Made by a program: the position numbers and the translations under genes. 10,759 nt of DNA from the IMG/VR virus record IMGVR_UViG_2713896834_000012, positions 1 through 10,759 of that record; one strand, given 5' to 3'. Every line of letters begins with the position of its first letter. Position 1 is the first letter of the stretch. Below the pieces are notes generated by a model that made no database searches, was not told the origin of the DNA, and saw only the letters and a list, made by a program, of their open reading frames with translations. This DNA is from a virus. Lineage: Duplodnaviria; Heunggongvirae; Uroviricota; Caudoviricetes. This document shows, piece by piece, positions 1 through 10,759 of the stretch.

Positions 1-192
1 TCAGGAGCATTTCTGATTAACGCCACCGTTAAGAATCCACCCTTCAACAGCTTCACGAAGGTATGATTTGGGGTGGGTTCTGACTGGCTTCGGAAATCCG
101 TGTCGTTTGGTATAGTTCCAGATTGTCTGACGTGATGAAACACCGAGCTTGTTCATCACTTCTTTCTCAGGAATCAGGCTGGTATCGGTCAT
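1..192 (-). CDS. AlpA-family (prophage regulatory / excisionase-like) helix-turn-helix protein, 63 aa
   Basis: Complete minus-strand ORF (ATG at 192-190, stop at 3-1). GGAG Shine-Dalgarno (complement of 200-203) lies 7 nt upstream of the ATG. The pattern KLGVSSRQTIWNYTKRHGFPKPV...AVEGWI matches the AlpA/TorI/Xis winged-HTH signature as I recall it. Family assignment is from memory, not a search. Confidence 0.6.
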   Translation of the reverse strand: MTDTSLIPEKEVMNKLGVSSRQTIWNYTKRHGFPKPVRTHPKSYLREAVEGWILNGGVNQKCS

Positions 193-206
193 CTTAATTC
201 TCCAGG

Positions 207-232
207 CAAAAAGAAACCGCCATCAGGCGGCT
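207..232 (-). terminator. Intrinsic terminator-like hairpin between the zinc-ribbon ORF and the AlpA-like gene
   Basis: On the minus strand: GC stem (plus-strand 217-221 ccgcc pairs with 226-230 ggcgg, 4-nt loop) followed directly by TTTCTTTTT (complement of 207-215). It ends about 15 nt upstream of the AlpA-like start codon. Confidence 0.45.
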
Positions 233-296
233 TGGTGTTCTTTCAGTTCTTCAATTCGAATATTGGTTACATTGTTTTCATATATGAATAAATAAA

Positions 297-476
297 TTAG
301 CTTTTTTCGTTGCCTTCGCGTTCTTTATTAATTTTAACAAACTCGTTTTTACCACGCTCTCCAAATGCGTCTTTAGAGTCGTTGTATCCGCAATCGCAGC
401 ACACATAATCACCAGACCATCCACGCATTGTTTTTTCTTTTGCAATATTTCCAGAACCGCATTCTGGGCAAGACAT
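297..476 (-). CDS. Small zinc-ribbon protein, 59 aa ([59 protein letters not shown])
   Basis: Hand translation of the minus strand: ATG at 476-474, TAA at 299-297. Two zinc knuckles, CPECG and C(C)DCG, spaced about 19 residues apart. AGGT 8 nt upstream as a weak RBS. Below the length cut-off of the supplied ORF track. Function unknown. Confidence 0.45.
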
Positions 477-488
477 ATCACGAACCTG

Positions 489-1070
489 ATGAAAAAACTG
501 GAGACGATAGGATTCGACACCAAAAAAGACCTGCTTATCTCGGTTGGCGATTTGGTCGATCGCGGTACAGAGAACGTCGAATGCCTGGAATTAATCACAT
601 TCCCCTGGTTCAGAGCTGTACGTGGAAACCATGAGCAAATGATGATTGATGGCTTATCAGAGCGCGGAAACGTCAATCACTGGATGCTTAATGGCGGTGG
701 CTGGTTCTTTAATATCGATTACGACAAAGAAATTCTGGCTAAAGATCTTGCCCATAAAGCAGATGAACTTCCGTTAATCATCGAACTGGTGAGCAAAGAT
801 AAAAAATATGTCATCTGCCACGCCGATTATCCTTGTGACGAATACGAATTTGGAAAGCCAGTTGATCATCAGCAGGTAATCTGGAACCGCGAACGAATCA
901 GCAACTCACAAGACGGGATCGTGAAAGAAATTAAAGGCGCGGACACGTTCATCTTTGGTCATACGCCAGCAGTGAAACCACTCAAGTTTGCCAACCAGAT
1001 GTATATAGATACCGGCGCAGTGTTCTGCGGAAACCTCACATTGATTCAGGTACAGGGAGAAGGCGCATGA
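489..1070 (+). CDS. Lambda-type Ser/Thr protein phosphatase (orf221/NinI, PrpA/PrpB family), N-terminally truncated; probably non-functional
   Basis: 193-aa ORF with metallophosphatase motifs GDLVDRG and GNHE and C-terminus ...[13 protein letters not shown], near-identical to the lambda phosphatase as I recall it. The first about 35-40 residues, including the GDxHG metal-binding motif, are missing. The frame is open upstream to 288 but encodes unrelated sequence. Confidence 0.8.
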
Positions 1071-1690
1071 GACTCGAAAGCGTAGCTAAATTTCATTCGC
1101 CAAAAAGCCCGATGATGAGCGACTCACCACGGGCCACGGCTTCTGACTCTCTTTCCGGTACTGATGTGATGGCTGCTATGGGGATGGCGCAATCACAAGC
1201 CGGATTCGGAATGGCTGCATTCTGCGGTAAGCATGAACTCAGCCAGAACGACAAACAAAAGGCTATCAACTATCTGATGCAATTTGCACACAAGGTATCG
1301 GGGAAATACCGTGGTGTGGCAAAGCTCGAAGGAAATACTAAGGCAAAGGTACTGCAAGTGCTCGCAACATTCGCTTATGCGGATTATTGCCGTAGTGCCG
1401 CGACGCCGGGCGCAAGATGCAGAGATTGCCACGGTACAGGCCGTGCGGTTGATATAGCAAAAACAGAGCAGTGGGGGAGAGTTGTTGAGAAAGAGTGCGG
1501 AAGATGCAAAGGTGTCGGCTATTCAAGAATGCCAGCAAGCGCAGCATATCGCGCTGTAACGATTCTAATCCCAAACCTTACTCAACCCACATGGTCACGC
1601 ACTGTTAAGCCGCTGTATGACGCTCTGGTGGTGCAATGCCACAAAGAAGAGTCAATCGCAGACAACATTTTGAATTCGGTCACACGTTAG
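1067..1690 (+). CDS. Q: Late-gene antiterminator Q (lambda Q type), 207 aa
   Basis: Protein [27 protein letters not shown]... matches lambda Q essentially along its full length (from memory). ATGA start/stop overlap with the phosphatase gene. GGGAGAAGG RBS at 1055-1063. Zinc-binding CRDCHGTG...CGRCKG. Confidence 0.93.
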
Positions 1691-1732
1691 CAGCATGATT
1701 GCCACGGATGGCAACATATTAACGGCATGATA

Positions 1733-1761
1733 TTGACTTTTTGAATAAAGTTGGGTAAATT
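1733..1761 (+). promoter_or_regulatory. Late promoter pR' with Q-binding (qut) element
   Basis: -35 TTGACT (1733-1738), 17-nt spacer, -10 TAAATT (1756-1761), about 45 nt after the Q stop. Nearly identical to the lambda pR' TTGACTTATTGAATAAAATTGGGTAAATT as I recall it (2 differences). Confidence 0.7.
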
Positions 1762-1797
1762 TGACCCAACGATGGATAAATGCACTCGTTAAATAAA

Positions 1798-1826
1798 GCC
1801 CTGAGTTAATAGCTCGGGGCTTTTTG
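1798..1826 (+). terminator. Promoter-proximal intrinsic terminator (candidate tR' analogue)
   Basis: 8-bp stem (1798-1805 gccctgag pairs with 1813-1820 ctcggggc, one G-U pair), 7-nt loop, then TTTTT (1821-1825). Lies about 30-58 nt downstream of the predicted pR' start. Confidence 0.45.
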
Positions 1827-1968
1827 CGTTTTAAGCACGGCCTTTCTGAAAGCACATCAAACCAAATACCAGACAGACAAAAATAATCACCTTATCCGCT
1901 GTGGCTACGTTGTGGTGTGCTTTGCATAAAAGAAAACCAGCTCAATGGCTGGCTTCGTGAAAGCGGGT

Positions 1969-2004
1969 GGCAGGAGGTCGCGCTAACAACCTCCTGCCGT
2001 TTTG
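1969..2004 (+). terminator. Conserved GC-rich stem-loop with U-tract, about 120 nt upstream of S
   Basis: ggcaggagg (1969-1977), 12-nt loop, cctcctgcc (1990-1998), then GTTTTG. The same element sits upstream of S in lambda (from memory). Terminator-like, but its function here is not established. Confidence 0.4.
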
Positions 2005-2103
2005 CCCGTGCATATCGGTCACGAACAAATCTGATTGCTAAACACAGTAGCCTGGATTTGTTCTATCAGTAATCGACCTTATTCCTAATTAAATAGAGCA
2101 AAT

Positions 2104-2117
2104 CCCCTTATTGGGGG
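2104..2117 (+). promoter_or_regulatory. sdi-like stem-loop controlling the S107/S105 dual start
   Basis: cccc (2104-2107), ttatt loop, ggggg (2113-2117), immediately upstream of the Met-Lys-Met start of S, as in lambda. Confidence 0.6.
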
Positions 2118-2123
2118 TAAGAC

Positions 2124-2447
2124 ATGAAGATGCCAGAAAAACATGACCTGTTAGCCGCCATTCTCGCGGCAAAGGAACAAGGCATCGGGGCAATCCTTGC
2201 GTTTGCAATGGCGTACCTTCGCGGCAGATATAATGGCGGTGCGTTTACAAAAACAGTAATCGACGCAACGATGTGCGCCATTATCGCCTGGTTCATTCGT
2301 GACCTTCTCGACTTCGCCGGACTAAGTAGCAACCTCGCTTATATAACGAGCGTGTTCATCGGCTACATCGGTACTGACTCGATTGGTTCGCTTATCAAAC
2401 GCTTCGCTGCTAAAAAAGCCGGAGTAGAAGATGGTGGAAATCAATAA
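2124..2447 (+). CDS. S: Holin S (class I; dual start, S107 antiholin at 2124 and S105 holin at 2130)
   Basis: 107-aa protein [39 protein letters not shown]... essentially identical to lambda S (from memory), with three transmembrane segments. Confidence 0.95.
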
Positions 2448-2907
2448 TCAACGTAAGGCGTTCCTCGATATGCTGGCGTGGTCAGAGGGAACTGATAACG
2501 GACGACAGAAAACCAGAAATCATGGTTATGACGTCATTGTTGGCGGAGAGCTATTCACTGATTACTCCGATCACCCTCGCAAACTTGTCACGCTAAACCC
2601 AAAACTCAAATCAACAGCAGCCGGACGTTACCAGCTTCTTTCCCGTTGGTGGGATGCCTACCGCAAGCAGCTTGGACTGAAAGACTTCTCTCCGAAAAGC
2701 CAGGACGCTGTGGCATTGCAGCAGATTAAGGAGCGTGGCGCTTTGCCGATGATTGATCGTGGTGATATTCGTCAGGCAATCGACCGTTGCAGCAATATCT
2801 GGGCTTCACTGCCTGGGGCTGGTTATGGTCAGTTCGAGCATAAGGCTGACAGCCTGATTGCAAAATTCAAAGAAGCAGGGGGAACGGTCAGAGAGATTGA
2901 GGTATGA
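2431..2907 (+). CDS. R: Endolysin R (lytic transglycosylase)
   Basis: 158-aa protein [39 protein letters not shown]... matches lambda R (from memory). Overlaps the 3' end of S by 17 nt. Confidence 0.95.
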
Positions 2908-3341
2908 GCAGAGTCACCGCGATTATCTCCGCTCTGGTTATCTGCATCATCGTCTGTCTGTCATGGGCTGTTAATCATTACCGTGATAACGCCATCGCCT
3001 ATAAAGAACAGCGCGATAAAGCCACGTACATCATCGCTGACATGCAGAAGCGTCAACGTGATGTAGCAGAACTCGACGCCAGATACACAAAGGAGCTTGC
3101 TGATGCTAACGCGACTATCGAAAGTCTCCGTGCTGATGTTTCTGCTGGGCGTAAGCGCCTGCAAGTCGCCGCCACCTGTGCAAGGTCAACGACCAGAGCC
3201 AGCGGCATGGGCGATGGAGAAAGCCCAGGACTTACAGCAGATGCTGAACTCAATTATTACCGTCTCCGAAGTGGAATCGACAAGATAACCGCGCAGGTTA
3301 ACTACCTGCAGGAATACATCAGGATGCAATGCCTGAAATGA
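2904..3341 (+). CDS. Rz: Inner-membrane spanin Rz (i-spanin)
   Basis: ATGA overlap with the R stop. N-terminus [31 protein letters not shown]... is lambda Rz-like with an N-terminal transmembrane helix and predicted coiled coil. The central region diverges from lambda. Confidence 0.85.
3103..3288 (+). CDS. Rz1: Outer-membrane lipoprotein spanin Rz1 (o-spanin), embedded in the +1 frame of Rz
   Basis: AGGAG (3091-3095) 7 nt upstream of ATG 3103. Signal peptide [20 protein letters not shown] with lipobox VSAC, followed by a proline-rich stretch ([13 protein letters not shown]). The track's 3097 start is a TTG in the same frame. Confidence 0.7.
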
Positions 3342-3377
3342 TCGGGCGATGAAAACCAAAAAAAACAGGAGCAATAC

Positions 3378-3653
3378 ATGACTAAGCTTTATCACCGCAT
3401 CTCAACTTTTCTCTCTGGTTGCTGGGCGTTTATCACGTCTATTTCGTTCGCCATCTTTAGTTTCGGTAGCACAGCGTGCTCGCTTAGTCGGGGTCTGTGG
3501 CGTGCTATTTCAGCACTAGCGCCGAAATTTTTACCTGAAAAGGCTGTTTGGCGAATTGTAGAGCGAATGTGTAGTGAGAGCGTTCGCGAGAAGATTAACG
3601 TATTTGGACGTCATCCTCGAAATACAGGCGCATTGTGCAGTCCGTTACTGTAG
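3378..3653 (+). CDS. Hypothetical protein, 91 aa, hydrophobic N-terminal segment (possible membrane protein)
   Basis: Strong RBS (AGGAG at 3367-3371, 6 nt before the ATG). Occupies the position where lambda carries bor, but on the opposite strand and with unrelated sequence. No family recognised. Confidence 0.45.
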   Translation: MTKLYHRISTFLSGCWAFITSISFAIFSFGSTACSLSRGLWRAISALAPKFLPEKAVWRIVERMCSESVREKINVFGRHPRNTGALCSPLL

Positions 3654-3654
3654 T

Positions 3655-3690
3655 CATTCCAAATCCCATCTACGGGTGGGCTTGATAATG
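3655..3690. repeat. Intergenic motif copy A (CATTCC...CTACGGGTGGGCTTGATAATG), imperfect hairpin
   Basis: Begins 2 nt after the stop of the 3378-3653 ORF. Shares CATTCC plus CTACrGrGTGG.CTT(T)GATAATG with 4319-4346. Confidence 0.5.
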
Positions 3691-3745
3691 AAACCGTGAT
3701 TTACATCCCCACAATCCGGGTATGTAAAAGATAGTTCAGGCGAGA

Positions 3746-3765
3746 ACAGATTTAACTAAATCTGT
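3746..3765. promoter_or_regulatory. Perfect palindrome ACAGATTTA-AC-TAAATCTGT (9-bp arms)
   Basis: Read directly from the sequence. Lies in the 283-nt non-coding gap between 3653 and 3937. Candidate dimeric protein-binding site or RNA hairpin. Confidence 0.4.
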
Positions 3766-3936
3766 GCACCACCAGTTGCGGCAGTACAGCGAAACAACCC
3801 AAGCCAGAAAGTGGGGAAATAACACTGGCAGCCACTGAAAGATGAACCTCCAGCCTTATGGCAAAAAAGATTCTTTGTGGTGGCGGACTGATGGAAAGAC
3901 ATCCTAATCAAGCAACCACTCTACAGGGTCATAATT

Positions 3937-4305
3937 ATGAACGACAAGCAAATTGAAAAAGAAATCGCAGCCAAGGGTAAGGCGGCTCGCGTTACTCCTG
4001 AACACATTGCCAGCATAATCGCCAGCGAACATTACTTTACGGCCGCTGATGGTGCTCGCTTTGCTCATGTGCAGAGAAGCGAAACATACAGCGTAAAAAT
4101 CCCAGACCAGCCTGACGAGCTGGAGCTGCTGACATTCTGCGTTCTGGTGCTGAAGAATGGCTTTACGGTCACCGGGGAAAGCGCCTGCGCCAGCCCAGAG
4201 AACTTCGATGAAGAAATCGGGCGCAAGATTGCTCGCCAGAATGCTGTAAACAAAATCTGGATGCTCGAAGGTTACTTGCTGAAGCAGAAGCTAAGCGAAC
4301 AGTAG
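3937..4305 (+). CDS. Phage protein of unknown function, 122 aa (possibly the gp49/Sf6-gp66-like family found upstream of terminase genes)
   Basis: Clean ORF located between the lysis cassette and the small terminase gene. Family assignment is tentative and from memory only. Confidence 0.55.
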   Translation: MNDKQIEKEIAAKGKAARVTPEHIASIIASEHYFTAADGARFAHVQRSETYSVKIPDQPDELELLTFCVLVLKNGFTVTGESACASPENFDEEIGRKIARQNAVNKIWMLEGYLLKQKLSEQ

Positions 4306-4318
4306 TTATTACAAAAGC

Positions 4319-4346
4319 CATTCCCTACAGAGTGGCTTTGATAATG
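4319..4346. repeat. Intergenic motif copy B (CATTCC-CTACAGAGTGGCTTTGATAATG), hairpin aaagcca/tggcttt
   Basis: Begins 14 nt after the stop of the 3937-4305 ORF. 7-bp stem (4314-4320 pairs with 4333-4339). Related to copy A and to the sequence just before the ATG at 3937 (CTACAGGGTCATAATTATG). Confidence 0.5.
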
Positions 4347-4408
4347 GCTTATACCCTACACGGGATAACTTAACTGATATCCCTTTTAACGGATAAACGG
4401 AGCCAACA

Positions 4409-4651
4409 ATGGCAGAGATTATTCCCATGACTGAAGAACAGAAATTCCAGCTAGAGATTTACAAACTGGTCATGAACCAGAACGCAGCCGCAGAGGAAGC
4501 ATTTCAATTTATTGGCACTGACGAACTGAAGCTTGAGCTATTCAAAATTCACTTCCAGTCAGGCGGCGCTAATTCAGATATCACGACCCGCACAATCGAA
4601 GCGGTGCGTAAATCGAAGGAAGCGTTAGACCTGTTCACTACCGGAGCATAA
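4409..4651 (+). CDS. Hypothetical small acidic phage protein, 80 aa
   Basis: GGAG RBS (4399-4402) 6 nt before the ATG. Its stop (4649-4651) lies 2 nt before the small terminase start, suggesting co-transcription. Confidence 0.5.
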   Translation: MAEIIPMTEEQKFQLEIYKLVMNQNAAAEEAFQFIGTDELKLELFKIHFQSGGANSDITTRTIEAVRKSKEALDLFTTGA

Positions 4652-4653
4652 AC

Positions 4654-5094
4654 ATGGCGCGCCCAACAAAGTATCAAGAGGCGTATGCCGAACAGGCACG
4701 CAAACTGTGCTTGCTGGGCTACACCGATGCAGAGCTTGCTGATTTCTTCGAAGTCAGTGAGTCAACTATTAACAAGTGGAAGCTCGATTATCCTAAGTTT
4801 TCGGAGTCCATAAAAAAGGGTAAGGCCGTCGCTGATGCAGAAGTTAGTGACCGTCTTTATCAACGCGCTATGGGCTTCGTGGCTCCAGACATCGATATTC
4901 GTGTTATTGAAAACAGAATTGTCGAAACTCCGCTTGAGAAGTATTACCCGCCTGATACAACAGCTGCCATCTTCTGGCTTAAGAACCGACAGAAGGATAA
5001 ATGGCGCGACAAGGTTGATCACGAGCTAACAGGCAAAGACGGCGGCGCAATTCAGATTGAAACATCACCGATGAGCACTCTATTCGGAAAATGA
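4654..5094 (+). CDS. Terminase small subunit (HTH DNA-binding), 146 aa
   Basis: N-terminal HTH-like segment (...GYTDAELADFFEVSESTINKWK...). Immediately precedes the large terminase subunit and is translationally coupled to it by an ATGA overlap at 5091-5094. Confidence 0.75.
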   Translation: MARPTKYQEAYAEQARKLCLLGYTDAELADFFEVSESTINKWKLDYPKFSESIKKGKAVADAEVSDRLYQRAMGFVAPDIDIRVIENRIVETPLEKYYPPDTTAAIFWLKNRQKDKWRDKVDHELTGKDGGAIQIETSPMSTLFGK

Positions 5095-6314
5095 CCTCGA
5101 TTAATCCTATCTTTGAACCGTTCATTGAGGCGCATCGCTACAAAGTCGCCAAAGGCGGTCGAGGTAGCGGTAAGTCATGGGCAATTGCTAGGCTGCTTGT
5201 TGAAGCGGCGCGTCGTCAGCCAGTGCGTATTCTCTGCGCTCGTGAACTGCAAAACAGTATCAGCGATTCGGTAATCCGGTTGCTTGAAGATACCATCGAG
5301 CGGGAAGGGTATTCGGCTGAGTTTGAAATTCAGCGTTCAATGATTCGTCATCTCGGTACGAATGCTGAATTCATGTTCTACGGCATCAAAAACAACCCGA
5401 CGAAGATTAAATCGCTCGAAGGCATTGATATCTGCTGGGTGGAAGAAGCGGAAGCGGTAACGAAGGAATCATGGGATATCCTGATACCAACCATCCGCAA
5501 GCCGTTTTCCGAAATATGGGTGAGCTTTAACCCGAAAAACATCCTCGACGATACCTATCAGCGATTCGTCGTAAATCCTCCCGATGATATTTGTCTGCTG
5601 ACAGTGAACTACACCGACAACCCGCACTTTCCTGAAGTTCTCCGTCTGGAGATGGAAGAGTGTAAACGCAGAAATCCGACACTGTATCGTCACATCTGGC
5701 TTGGTGAGCCAGTAAGCGCAAGTGATATGGCAATCATCAAACGTGAATGGCATGAAGCCGCAACCGATGCGCACAAGAAACTCGGATGGAAAGCGAAAGG
5801 CGCTGTTGTCTCTGCGCATGACCCATCAGATACAGGGCCAGATGCTAAAGGTTATGCATCGCGTCACGGTTCGGTAGTTAAGCGCATTGCTGAAGGTCTG
5901 CTGATGGACATCAACGAGGGTGCTGACTGGGCTACTTCGCTGGCGATTGAAGACGGTGCTGACCACTACCTGTGGGATGGCGATGGCGTTGGTGCCGGGC
6001 TACGCAGACAGACAACGGAAGCGTTCTCCGGCAAGAAAATCACCGCCACGATGTTCAAGGGCAGCGAATCGCCATTCGATGAAGATGCTCCGTATCAGGC
6101 CGGAGCATGGGCTGATGAAGTAGTACAGGGCGACAACGTTCGCACTATTGGCGATGTGTTCCGCAATAAGCGAGCGCAATTCTATTACGCGCTGGCTGAC
6201 AGGCTGTATCTAACCTGCAGAAGCTTGGTAAGGTTGCTGATAACGAGACTATTTCAAAACTTCAGTCCTATCGTGATGAGCTTGTTCGCAATGCTGGTCC
6301 AGATGGTCCGGTAA
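5091..6314 (+). CDS. Terminase large subunit (PBSX/Sf6-like family), C-terminally truncated or frame-disrupted; probable pseudogene
   Basis: Walker A motif KGGRGSGKS near the N-terminus, ATPase and RNase-H-like nuclease regions recognisable to about residue 372 (...RAQFYYALADRLYLT). The last about 35 residues (CRSLVRLLITRLFQNFSPIVMSLFAMLVQMVR) look like out-of-frame junk. No portal gene follows. Confidence 0.85.
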   Translation: MTSINPIFEPFIEAHRYKVAKGGRGSGKSWAIARLLVEAARRQPVRILCARELQNSISDSVIRLLEDTIEREGYSAEFEIQRSMIRHLGTNAEFMFYGIKNNPTKIKSLEGIDICWVEEAEAVTKESWDILIPTIRKPFSEIWVSFNPKNILDDTYQRFVVNPPDDICLLTVNYTDNPHFPEVLRLEMEECKRRNPTLYRHIWLGEPVSASDMAIIKREWHEAATDAHKKLGWKAKGAVVSAHDPSDTGPDAKGYASRHGSVVKRIAEGLLMDINEGADWATSLAIEDGADHYLWDGDGVGAGLRRQTTEAFSGKKITATMFKGSESPFDEDAPYQAGAWADEVVQGDNVRTIGDVFRNKRAQFYYALADRLYLTCRSLVRLLITRLFQNFSPIVMSLFAMLVQMVR

Positions 6315-6997
6315 ATCTGGATTTGAAGCAATTAAGCGATCTGCGCAGCCAGTTCAGAATGGACGTGAAGGGTGAGCGACCAGTGTTACCAAACCGTTCC
6401 GATGCTGCCATTCAGCGCGTTTACAAGGCAATGACTGACGATATCAATGGTGCCATTGGTCAGAATCTTGGCAACGATACTCTCCGTAAATATCAGCAGG
6501 CCAATGCCGTCTACGCTGACGAAGCGGCGAAGCTAAAGAATACCAGGCTGAAGAATGTTCTCATGAAAGGCGACCTGACGCCGGAAGTTGTCAACAACAT
6601 GCTATTCAGCAAGAACAAATCGGAAATTAAGACGCTGTATAACTCAGTTGGTCGTGTTGGCAGGGCGCAAATGCGCAATGGCATCATTGGAAAGGCGATG
6701 GAGAAATCTGGCGGATCCCCTGACCAGTTCCTTCGGCAGCTTAACATCCTGCAAAACCAGACTGGCATCACATTTAAGGGGCAGGACGCTGCTTATCTGA
6801 AAGGATTGAAAAAATACCTTCAGTCCACTCAGCAGGCAGCAAAAGCGGCAGTAACAACACCAACAGGGCAGCAAACCATCCCGTTCATTATCGGGTATGG
6901 GACGGCAACGAACCCGGCGACAACTGGCGCAGCAGTAAGCTACGGACTTCTTACTCGCGCCTATGAGAGCGAACCATTCAGAAATGCAATGCTCTGA
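6200..6997 (+). pseudogene. 3' fragment of a virion structural gene (possibly the last ejection/injection protein upstream of the tailspike), lacking its 5' end
   Basis: Frame +2 is open from 6200 (preceded by TGA at 6197-6199) to the stop at 6995-6997, with no ATG until far downstream. The track's 6323 start is a TTG. The translation is Q/N/K/A/G-rich (QAVSNLQKLGKVADNETISKLQSYRDELV...). Gene identity is inferred from synteny only. Confidence 0.4.
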
Positions 6998-7217
6998 ATG
7001 GCAAATACCCCACGCGGATCAACAGCGTTTGAGAAAGCCTTGCAGCAGGCACAAAAGGCAATTAACGCGCTGACCCAAGGCGCTAAGTCTGATGCGTTGT
7101 CTGAATAGTTTCGAAAACACCAGGAACGTGCAAAAACCAAATATGTAGAACGCAATATTCAACAGATCTCTTTGCATAGACTCATCTCATAATTAACAGA
7201 TCATAACTGACATTAGT

Positions 7218-7253
7218 GCAATGCCGGGCAAGTTGCATCTTGTCCGGCATTGC
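7218..7253 (+). promoter_or_regulatory. Very stable 15-bp stem-loop immediately upstream of the tailspike RBS
   Basis: 7218-7232 pairs with 7239-7253 (14 Watson-Crick pairs plus one G-U), loop ttgcat. No U-tract follows. The tailspike SD (GGAG, 7261-7264) lies 8 nt downstream. Confidence 0.4.
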
Positions 7254-7272
7254 TACGTCCGGAGCAAATTAA

Positions 7273-9453
7273 ATGACAGACATTACAGCCAATGTTGTAG
7301 TAAGCATGCCTTCGCAACTCTTCACTATGGCGCGTTCTTTTAAAGCCGTAGCCAATGGCAAAATTTATATCGGTAAAATTGACACTGACCCAGTAAATCC
7401 TGAAAACCAGATTCAGGTTTATGTGGAGAACGAAGACGGCTCTCACGTTCCTGTTTCGCAACCAATCATCATTAACGCTGCTGGTTACCCTGTATATAAC
7501 GGACAGATTGCCAAATTCGTTACCGTGCAAGGCCATTCTATGGCTGTTTATGACGCGTATGGTGCACAGCAATTCTATTTTCCGAATGTACTTAAGTACG
7601 ACCCTGCCGCACTAAAATATGACTTGGAAGCTCCGTATGGCATGTCGATTATTGGGGAGTTCGAATCGGTAGCGGACTTGCAATCCTTCTCCCAGTTGTC
7701 CCTGATTGATAACGGGGAGAGAGTGTCGGTAAAAAGCTTTCATGCTGGAAGAGGTGTTGGTGGTGGTTATTTCAGATGGTTGGCCACAAGCACGCTGGCT
7801 GATGACGGATTTTCTGTCATCAAACCAACCGCTGTTACTGGTTCCGGGCGATGGGTAAACGTGAAGAGAGGTGCGCTTACTCCACCAGAGTGTGGGGCTG
7901 TTCCTGATGATTCTACTTTCGACAGTGCTACCGGACTTTCAAACTGGGCTACTCAAAACCGCTGCATTGGTAGTCCTGGTGTGTTTAGATCATCAACTGG
8001 GATAGTATTTACAGGCAGTAATCCATGGGTTACTGCCGATCGTATGACGATTGAATATACTGCACCAGAGATTAACGGCGTTATGGTAACCACTAACGAC
8101 CAGACTATATTTCAAGTTGAGGGACTGGAAGTTAAAAACGTTAGTGCGACACCATCTACGGCTGCCGCAACTGCAAATGGATTTAGAATGATTGGGCTTA
8201 AGCAGGCATTTGTTAGGCGCTGCAGAAGCATCGGATGGAAAAATGCAGGGATATTCTTCCAGAGCTGCAGGCAGTGGGAAGCTATTGATAATTTATGCTG
8301 GCTTAATGATTGGGACCTAACCAATACATTTGCCTCCGGTGGGGATATCGTTTCCTACACTGGAACGCCAGGCGCTTCAAAGGGAGGGAAAATAATTGGT
8401 AATTTACTGCTTTCCGATGCAAGCCAAGGAATTAACGTAAACGCACTGTCTGCTGATAGGGAAATCATCATTGCAAATAACACGATCCTTACCTATAACA
8501 CTGATTTCACAACGAAAGATTTCTCTCTCATTAATAAAAGACATGGTATTGAGTTTGGGTACAAAAGTAATCAGACTTACGGAGGCTCGATACTTATTGC
8601 AAACAATATTATTCGTGATACGAACTGGACTGGTATTTACCGTTCTGGTGGAGCGGATGGTTCTGTTTCTTATCCACCATCAATGATTCATGGCAATTTG
8701 ATCCATAACGTTGGTATGAAAATTGATGCATCCAATATCTCTGGTGGTATTCTAATTGGTGATATAGTTGATGGTGACATACTATCTAACAATATTGTTT
8801 CTGGTTTTGGTCAATTATCATCTGGTGCCTATCGGATACAGGATTCGGTTGGAAGCGGTAAGCTCACAATGAACAACAATGTAGACTTTGATAGCAAGGG
8901 GTCAGGTATATACATAACTGGTGAGGCTAATGGTGTGGTTGTTAACGGTCACAGAACTGTCAGAGCTTCAGGTTATAGCGTATTCCTTGCCCCCGTATCA
9001 GGAGCTACAGTTTTTGGCGATCACGTACTAAATAACATCGTGGTTGAAAGGACTACGGATGGTTACGGTGTTGTATTTGCTTCAGGCGCTGCGACAACAA
9101 GCTCTCTGAATAATCTAAATGCAAAAGGAACCTTCACAAACGCCACTACTAACTCAGCTGTATATGTGGCAGGAACACCTTCAAATGCAATAATTATCGG
9201 AGGCGTCATTAAAGGGTTTGCGTATGGAGTCTGGTGTCAGTCTTATGTCGACACTACAATCCAACTTCCATGGGGTGGCATAACCTTCATTGGTACAATA
9301 AATGCTTTCAGGCTGGCAAGGACAACAGGAACCGCAAATGCGTTTGTAAATCCTAATTTTTTCTATGGCGTAACTAATAGATTCTCAAATGGTGGCACAG
9401 GTACCAGTAATGGAGCAGAAAGATTATTGGTTAATGGGGCTGTTGTGGCATAA
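7273..9453 (+). CDS. Tailspike protein: P22-type N-terminal head-binding domain plus right-handed beta-helix receptor-binding (probable glycanase) domain, 726 aa
   Basis: N-terminus [13 protein letters not shown]...[27 protein letters not shown]...[13 protein letters not shown]...NVLKYDP matches the P22/Sf6/HK620 tailspike head-binding domain (from memory). The remainder has beta-helix-like repeats ([29 protein letters not shown]). GGAG RBS 8 nt upstream. Confidence 0.9.
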
Positions 9454-9475: not shown

Positions 9476-10759
9476 CATAAGCGCTAACTTAAGGGTTGAA
9501 CCATCTGAAGAATGCGACGCCTCGGTGCCTCGTTAAGACGATGCCTCGCGTTCTTCAATTGCGTTTTGTAGGCTGTCAGGGATACTGTCCCACGAATGGC
9601 CACCTGTAAGCTCCAGATGACCATTTTTGTTATTCTCCACAACGAGTTAGTTCTTCTTTTCGGATCCGGCACTTCTGGGGGGGAAATCCAGCGATGGCTG
9701 GATTATGTCGTCAATTAAAAATGCGGCGAGTAGATTAGCAAATATCCACGCTTTCGCGAGTTCAGGTTCCTTTGCACGCAAAGCATCCAGGTGCAGCAAA
9801 CTTTTGAGCCGCTTAAAAGCCAGTTCAATTTGCCATCGCAGACGGTAACAATCAGCCACTTGCTCTGCTGAATATTCATCTTCCGGTAATGATGTTAGCA
9901 ATAGCACATGGCCCGCTGCTTCCAGCGTTTCCGCCTGAACTACTCGTCCTTTTCGACGATTCTCGCTGAGCAGTCGGGTTTTACTGATTAATGCTTTTTC
10001 GGGAGGAAGTGATACGGCAATGAGACGTGCCGGAAAGGGAGCTCCGGCTTTTTTATTACCTGAATTGCCTATCATTACAGTGGTTTCACCGTTCTTACCG
10101 CAATCCAGCCCGCGCAGAAAACCCATCATGTCAAAGCGCATTCCTTCTGCAGTTAACCAGCGCAATCCTCGCCAGTGAACCCGGACGATATAATCAGCTT
10201 CTCCAAAAGCAAGTGAGCGGATACATTCGGGACGCGAACCGAATCCCCGGTCAGCAATGCGTATCTCGTCTGCCGTTTGCGCAAATCGGTCCAGCCGTTC
10301 AGCGTCTCTGCTGTCGGTTAGCTCAAAATCAGTGAACTGACAGGTATGAGGATCATATCCCATATGTAGTCGCCATTCAGCGCTGCCGCCCCCGGGCGCA
10401 CTGATTGCTGTTCCATCGACAAGACGCAATCTCTTTCCGCTTGTACAACCCGTAACTGCGGCGCGTACAGCAAGTGTTTGTGCGGCAAGTATGCCAAACC
10501 AGTCGGCGGCATTCCGCAGCCGCTTCAGGAGAGCCACGTCAGATAATGTTGCAACGTCATGGAGCTGAGCCCATGCAGTGACTTCACGTAATGACATCCC
10601 CCCGGGGCCGTAAGCCAGCCCCAGACGTAGCAGAGTTGCAGCATCACGAATTTCGCGGCGGCGGGTTAGAGCCCCGGCATTACGTGCCGAAGTATCCAGT
10701 TCTTCGGGCTTACCAATATGGGCCAGAATTGCTGACCAGTTATCGTGAGAGTAATTCAT
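9476..10759 (-). mobile_element. IS186 (IS4 family), partial; the far end lies beyond the window
   Basis: Terminal inverted repeat CATAAGCGCTAACTTAAGGGTTG begins at about 9476. It is flanked by GGGGGGTGTCACCCC (9462-9476), the G-run/C-run target type IS186 is known to prefer. Contains the complete insL-type transposase. Boundary is accurate to about 1 nt. Confidence 0.9.
9647..10759 (-). CDS. insL: IS186 transposase (IS4 family, DDE), 370 aa
   Basis: Protein MNYSHDNWSAILAHIGKPEELDTSARNAG... with the IS4-family motif YRLRWQIELAFKRLK. The start codon is the last 3 nt of the window (10759-10757), stop at 9649-9647. Confidence 0.95.
   Translation of the reverse strand: MNYSHDNWSAILAHIGKPEELDTSARNAGALTRRREIRDAATLLRLGLAYGPGGMSLREVTAWAQLHDVATLSDVALLKRLRNAADWFGILAAQTLAVRAAVTGCTSGKRLRLVDGTAISAPGGGSAEWRLHMGYDPHTCQFTDFELTDSRDAERLDRFAQTADEIRIADRGFGSRPECIRSLAFGEADYIVRVHWRGLRWLTAEGMRFDMMGFLRGLDCGKNGETTVMIGNSGNKKAGAPFPARLIAVSLPPEKALISKTRLLSENRRKGRVVQAETLEAAGHVLLLTSLPEDEYSAEQVADCYRLRWQIELAFKRLKSLLHLDALRAKEPELAKAWIFANLLAAFLIDDIIQPSLDFPPRSAGSEKKN

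Follow-up and report, generated by a model that had tools for sequence, protein, structure and literature searches.

The stretch of DNA analysed here at its full length of 10,759 nucleotides (the window) very probably represents, on the basis of its sequence, a decayed P22-like prophage of E. coli (Lederbergvirus, of the Sf6/CUS-3/HK620 type) integrated between sbcB and dacD. Within it, a deletion of more than 11 kb has joined the 5' 79% of the gene for the large terminase subunit (TerL) to the 3' part of a P22-gp16-family DNA-ejection gene, with a single copy of the pentanucleotide TATCT left at the join. The parts that have been retained are collinear with Sf6, CUS-3 and the intact E. coli prophage of EC17CM6 at 92-97% nucleotide identity, and in the late-region order of lederbergviruses (Q, holin, endolysin, Rz/Rz1, small terminase subunit or TerS, TerL, head, ejection, tailspike) it is the head genes that are missing. 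The features of the window are the following, with the evidence for each given in brackets.

297-476, minus strand: Eag-like gene (adjoins the truncated ninI phosphatase gene)
489-1070, plus strand: NinI-type phosphatase without its N-terminus (open reading frame)
1067-1690, plus strand: Q-type antiterminator (open reading frame)
2124-3341, plus strand: holin, endolysin and Rz with embedded Rz1 (open reading frames)
between Rz/Rz1 and TerS, plus strand: two small conserved phage genes (open reading frames)
4654-5094, plus strand: intact gene for the small terminase subunit, 146 aa (97% nucleotide identity to the CUS-3 small terminase)
5091-6211, plus strand: 5' 79% of the large terminase gene, Sf6 gp2 type, codons 1-374 of 470 (Pfam, phmmer, blastn)
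6207-6211, plus strand: deletion junction, TATCT, single copy retained (three-way ungapped alignments with Sf6, CUS-3 and EC17CM6)
6212-6314, plus strand: out-of-frame tail of the TerL reading frame, 33 codons, stop at 6312-6314 (translation)
6207-7108, plus strand: 3' fragment of the P22-gp16-family DNA-ejection gene, corresponding to Sf6 gene 13 codons 367-665 (blastn to Sf6 12653-13554)
6995-6997, plus strand: nonsense codon TGA at the position of Sf6 gp13 codon 629 (AGA in Sf6, CGA in EC17CM6)
7273-9453, plus strand: full-length tailspike gene, 726 aa (Pfam Head_binding and tblastn)
9647-10759, minus strand: transposase of IS421 (IS4 family), running off the window end (open reading frame)

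The reading frame for TerL, the start of which is overlapped by the stop of the small terminase gene, spans 5091-6314 and encodes 407 aa. An earlier note, made from the sequence without database searches, had considered this frame recognisable to about 6215 and junk thereafter, and comparison with Sf6 bears this out: residues 1-374 are identical to those of the crystallised Sf6 gp2 at 373 of 374 positions (99.7%), the PDB entries of which, 4IDH and 4IFE, are matched by phmmer at E=1e-260 over residues 1-380, whereas no similarity to Sf6 gp2 is present past residue ~375 of the window protein. The final 33 residues derive from gp16 DNA translated in the wrong frame. Terminases of about 400 aa, with which the frame might have been complete as it stands, were not what the comparison returned, since the full-length homologues of Sf6 and CUS-3 have 470 and 471 aa, respectively. 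The ATPase domain is present (Pfam Terminase_3, PF04466, residues 15-206, E=2.5e-41) and has the same sequence as Sf6 gp2 in that region. The nuclease active site of the Sf6 enzyme includes D244, D296 and D444, plus K428 and N441 (PMC4678813); homology to the window protein stops at residue 374/375 of 470, and the weak Terminase_3C match that Pfam reports for residues 305-449 of Sf6 gp2 is gone. Hence, the predicted TerL remnant would have a complete ATPase domain and cannot possess a complete nuclease, for K428, N441 and D444 lie in the part that has been deleted. Two antisense reading frames overlapping the region 5091-6997 (116 aa at 5469-5819 and 86 aa at 6511-6771) were regarded as by-products of the coding strand.

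The second frame, which runs open from 6200 as far as the stop codon at 6995-6997, had been taken for the C-terminal part of an unrelated protein rich in Q, N and K. This assignment can now be refined to an ejection protein of the P22 gp16 family, since the frame is ~98% identical at the protein level to residues 366/367-665 of Sf6 gp13, the homologue of P22 gp16. Full-length proteins of this kind have 665 aa in Sf6 and 797 aa in EC17CM6, and only codons 367-665 are kept in the window, in a frame that differs from that of TerL and lacks an ATG; a TTG at 6323 is the earliest possible start. The TGA at 6995-6997 interrupts a homology that goes on to the normal stop at 7108; it is an additional decay mutation, later than the deletion or independent of it. 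Pfam has no family for the 6200-6997 frame, the 6323-6997 frame or even full-length Sf6 gp13, and the identity of the fragment thus rests on homology to Sf6 gene 13 together with the names given by RefSeq. A 97.7% match to the 3' half of this gene also occurs in a DH5alpha record (NZ_CP026085.1, 1473285-1473589), a K-12 derivative, where it is annotated as a hypothetical protein.

The abrupt breakdown of the terminase frame near 6212, just as another frame opens, might also be produced by a simple frameshift or local scrambling in a full-length terminase gene, in which case the downstream frame would encode the terminase C-terminus. That frame matches Sf6 gp13 and shows no terminase similarity, and the coordinates of the aligned Sf6 genome jump from 1543 to 12653; a simple frameshift is consequently excluded, and we attach practically no probability to any rearrangement confined to the terminase gene.

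The position of the deletion follows from local blastn against the whole Sf6 genome, in which Sf6 335-1543 corresponds to window 5006-6214 (95.6% identity) and Sf6 12653-14052 to window 6207-7606 (94.5% identity). Megablast against phage genomes gives the same picture: the window up to 6211-6214 matches the terminase genes of CUS-3, HK620, Sf101 and others at 95-98%, and from 6207 onwards it matches genes 13 and 14 of Sf6 at 96%. The break does not move when CUS-3 or the intact prophage of EC17CM6 serves as the reference. In ungapped three-way alignment the window follows terL exactly to ...GGCTGTATCT and gene 13 exactly from TATCTAACCTGCAG..., so that the crossover, placed base by base, is the TATCT at 6207-6211, the sole sequence common to both parental sites and well within the interval of 6200-6215 that had been suggested at the outset. 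Sf6 and EC17CM6 have TATCT at both sites, CUS-3 at the terL site. Over the longer string TATCTRAC the two parental sites agree at 7 of 8 positions, and the microhomology would amount to 8 bp instead of 5 if the true parent carried TATCTAAC in terL, the parental sites being deduced from relatives that are 95-97% identical and not from an intact copy of this very prophage. Among the best E. coli matches examined, no intact prophage was found at sbcB-dacD.

The alignment reveals no inserted DNA, no filler and no insertion sequence or end of one at the junction, nor any att-like site or long homology. There is, then, a direct repeat at both breakpoints, of which a single copy is kept with nothing inserted. 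A short direct repeat retained in one copy, without filler and without an IS end, is the signature of short-homology-dependent illegitimate recombination. In 200,000 random pairs of terL and gp16 breakpoints drawn from EC17CM6, a microhomology of at least 5 bp arose in 0.6% of the joins (P=0.006); the TATCT overlap is thus unlikely to be accidental, in keeping with the microhomology-mediated deletion that the earlier note had proposed. Could the overlap be coincidental all the same, the DNA having been removed by a deletion adjacent to an insertion sequence, or by several deletions in succession? The element does contain many insertion sequences (IS421, IS100 and IS66, just downstream), and a second large deletion around 477-479 indicates that DNA has been lost here repeatedly. 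Yet the junction is free of any IS or IS end, both parental homologies run unbroken into the shared TATCT, and a 5-bp overlap is expected in just 0.6% of random joins; even in a series of nested deletions, the last event would remain a microhomology join. We consequently see only a slim chance that the deletion arose in such a manner.

The DNA absent from the window amounts to 11,117 bp with respect to Sf6 (1541-12657) and to 11,550 bp with respect to EC17CM6, the intact related prophage in which the same break is seen. Lost are the last 96 codons of terL, the genes for portal, scaffold and coat, gene 6, and the homologues of gp4, gp10, gp26 (the needle) and gp14, as well as those of gp7 and gp20 and codons 1-366 of the gp16 homologue (from comparison with Sf6 and EC17CM6). 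From the end of the terminase reading frame (6314) to the ATG of the tailspike (7273) only ~1 kb is left, as had been pointed out originally, and the same stretch is longer by 11.1 kb in Sf6 and by 11.55 kb in EC17CM6. The accompanying claim that the prophage cannot produce capsids holds equally, given that every capsid gene present in Sf6 and EC17CM6 is absent; with all capsid and tail-accessory genes gone, no virions can come from this element.

Sf6 itself (a Shigella phage, Lederbergvirus Sf6) resembles the window on both flanks of the junction at 94-96% nucleotide identity, and its segment 12653-14052 is collinear without gaps through the 3' end of gp13, the intergenic region and the head-binding domain of the tailspike. 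In contrast, it possesses in 1541-12657 what the window is without, namely genes 3-12, flanked by the end of gene 2 and the initial 1.1 kb of gene 13, and it differs also in its Q gene, in the receptor-binding domain of its tailspike and in its integration site. A second comparison is with the prophage of EC17CM6 (NZ_CP190018.1): its TerS (WP_000113732.1 in both elements) and DUF2560 proteins are identical to those of the window and its terL and gp16 flanks 96-97% identical, with TATCT at both sites, although it sits at a locus other than sbcB-dacD. Unlike the window, the intact EC17CM6 prophage, CUS-3 and HK620 carry the full head/ejection module of 11.5 kb between the two sites. A remnant at argW (tRNA-Arg) in strain ECL27829 was considered as an intact parent and rejected, for it is a separate, independently deleted element. 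It, too, has undergone a large deletion ending in a gp16-family gene, so that a 3' gp16 fragment is followed by a tailspike and an acyltransferase; its junction is different, a fragment of the anti-RecBCD gene abc2 being joined to gp16 (19640-20902 of locus L007). The independent deletion in ECL27829 shows that the erosion of P22-like prophages recurs.

The distribution of the junction bears upon its reality. Of 5,426 complete E. coli genomes, 48 match a junction-centred query of 605 bp over its full length, the remaining matches covering one half only, and the query is 100% identical in four full-coverage carriers among the matches listed. E. coli MB1 and several other complete genomes match the whole window at 100% identity. 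In both carriers inspected, MB1 and KBN10P04869, the element lies at sbcB-dacD; the latter strain and an ST410 isolate are separated by 36 whole-genome SNPs (PMC10472685). A scan for the exact junction returned no match among GTDB species-representative genomes, and in IMG/VR it returned one contig, which is identical to window 1-7328, ends at the site of an IS100 insertion and is the same remnant. An assembly error or chimera, uniting distant parts of an intact prophage, has nothing in its favour besides the abruptness of the junction, and is hardly conceivable when that junction recurs in 48 independent complete genomes, from various laboratories, hosts and countries, and in the IMG/VR contig. 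From its presence in these genomes and in no other species representative we infer that the deletion is not an artefact but one event inherited in a single lineage, from which nested deletions would be indistinguishable. RefSeq (PGAP) already labels the terL half as a pseudogene ('PBSX family phage terminase large subunit, missing C-terminus') and likewise the gp16 half ('lytic transglycosylase domain-containing protein, missing N-terminus, internal stop').

How might the junction have come about? Illegitimate recombination would have fused terL at codon 374 with the gp16-family ejection gene at its codon 366/367, by an exchange between two copies of TATCT lying ~11.1-11.5 kb apart, of which one was kept. 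The process, presumably a single event, was probably RecA-independent and dependent on short homology, for example replication slippage or end joining. It appears to have occurred in the integrated prophage within the chromosome; a phage particle is an unlikely setting, since without head genes the genome could not have packaged itself. The join, being out of frame, would yield a TerL product of 407 aa in which the ATPase domain is intact, the nuclease incomplete and the last 33 residues nonsense, and would leave the gp16 remnant without a start codon, a nonsense mutation having been acquired since.

The loss of the capsid genes is one among several lethal lesions. At the second large deletion junction, ~477-479 (474-489), the start codon of the minus-strand Eag-like gene abuts the ninI phosphatase gene, the homology of which to phages starts exactly at 479 and which has lost ~25 N-terminal codons. 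The deletion has taken away the entire early region, with the genes for recombination, immunity and replication as well as the nin genes, which in Sf6 terms amounts to ~16 kb. This region ordinarily drives the expression of Q and late transcription, and its deletion means that late transcription of the element is probably silent. Just upstream of the window, the integrase gene next to sbcB carries an internal stop and is a pseudogene (14189-15367 of MB1 locus L003), which renders the element defective also in excision.

These lesions have to be set against the fact that TerS, holin, endolysin, Rz/Rz1, Q and tailspike are full length in the window. The lysis region is free of gaps and 96-97% identical to Sf6, CUS-3 and EC17CM6, and the endolysin has the same protein accession as that of the intact EC17CM6 prophage. 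The tailspike begins with the head-binding domain of P22 (Pfam Head_binding, residues 1-112, E=6e-66), and its homologues align through residue 725 by tblastn. The earlier description of the lysis genes and tailspike as intact is in this respect correct; the intact tailspike is nevertheless no mark of preservation, since an IS100 element (IS21 family) splits the tailspike gene after window position 7328, at codon 19, in ~40 of the 48 junction carriers. Among these is KBN10P04869 (14727-16633 of locus L006), and only 8 genomes have the site uninterrupted at an identity of at least 99.8%.

In functional terms, the remnant might be regarded as domesticated, with TerS, an ATPase-only TerL, the lysis cassette and the tailspike kept for the benefit of the host, and the intact ATPase domain, 99.7% identical to Sf6 gp2, would fit this reading as do the full-length genes. 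We consider it very improbable: the carriers are all identical across the junction and offer no signal of selection, the tailspike is interrupted in most of them, the early region driving Q and late transcription is deleted, and the gp16 remnant has gained a nonsense codon. It is just as doubtful that TerS with a nuclease-dead TerL', or the lysis and tailspike genes, would benefit the ST410-related lineage, for instance by dominant-negative interference with the packaging of superinfecting phages of Sf6/HK620 type. Such a benefit has its sole support in the intact reading frames, whereas neutral decay is favoured by the IS100 in the tailspike of most carriers and by the missing early region. 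The full-length state of the remaining genes reflects most simply the recency of the decay, not selection.

The element is ordinary prophage decay, already captured by public annotation, and not a new biological system. It has little significance beyond annotation, where the deletion explains the adjacent 'terminase' and 'lytic transglycosylase domain' pseudogenes at the locus, and it constitutes a textbook case of prophage erosion by short-homology deletion. The TATCT junction at 6207-6211 is nevertheless a clean clonal marker of 48 complete E. coli genomes, including the ST410-related carrier, and together with the later insertion of IS100 in the tailspike it forms an ordered series of decay that could serve in lineage typing.

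Of the tailspike, only the head-binding domain is P22-like, and in the phage collection no close relative of the receptor-binding domain (7609-9453) was found, the best matches, at 44-46% amino acid identity, being Shigella phage ChubbyThor and two Kayfunavirus records. In the variant represented by the window, for example in MB1, IS100 lies within the tnpB of the downstream IS66 and not in the tailspike. IS421 directly follows the tailspike gene, and beyond it the MB1 genome has IS66/IS100 and then genes for an acyltransferase and a GDSL-esterase (24994-32533 of locus L003), which may be prophage cargo for O-antigen modification.
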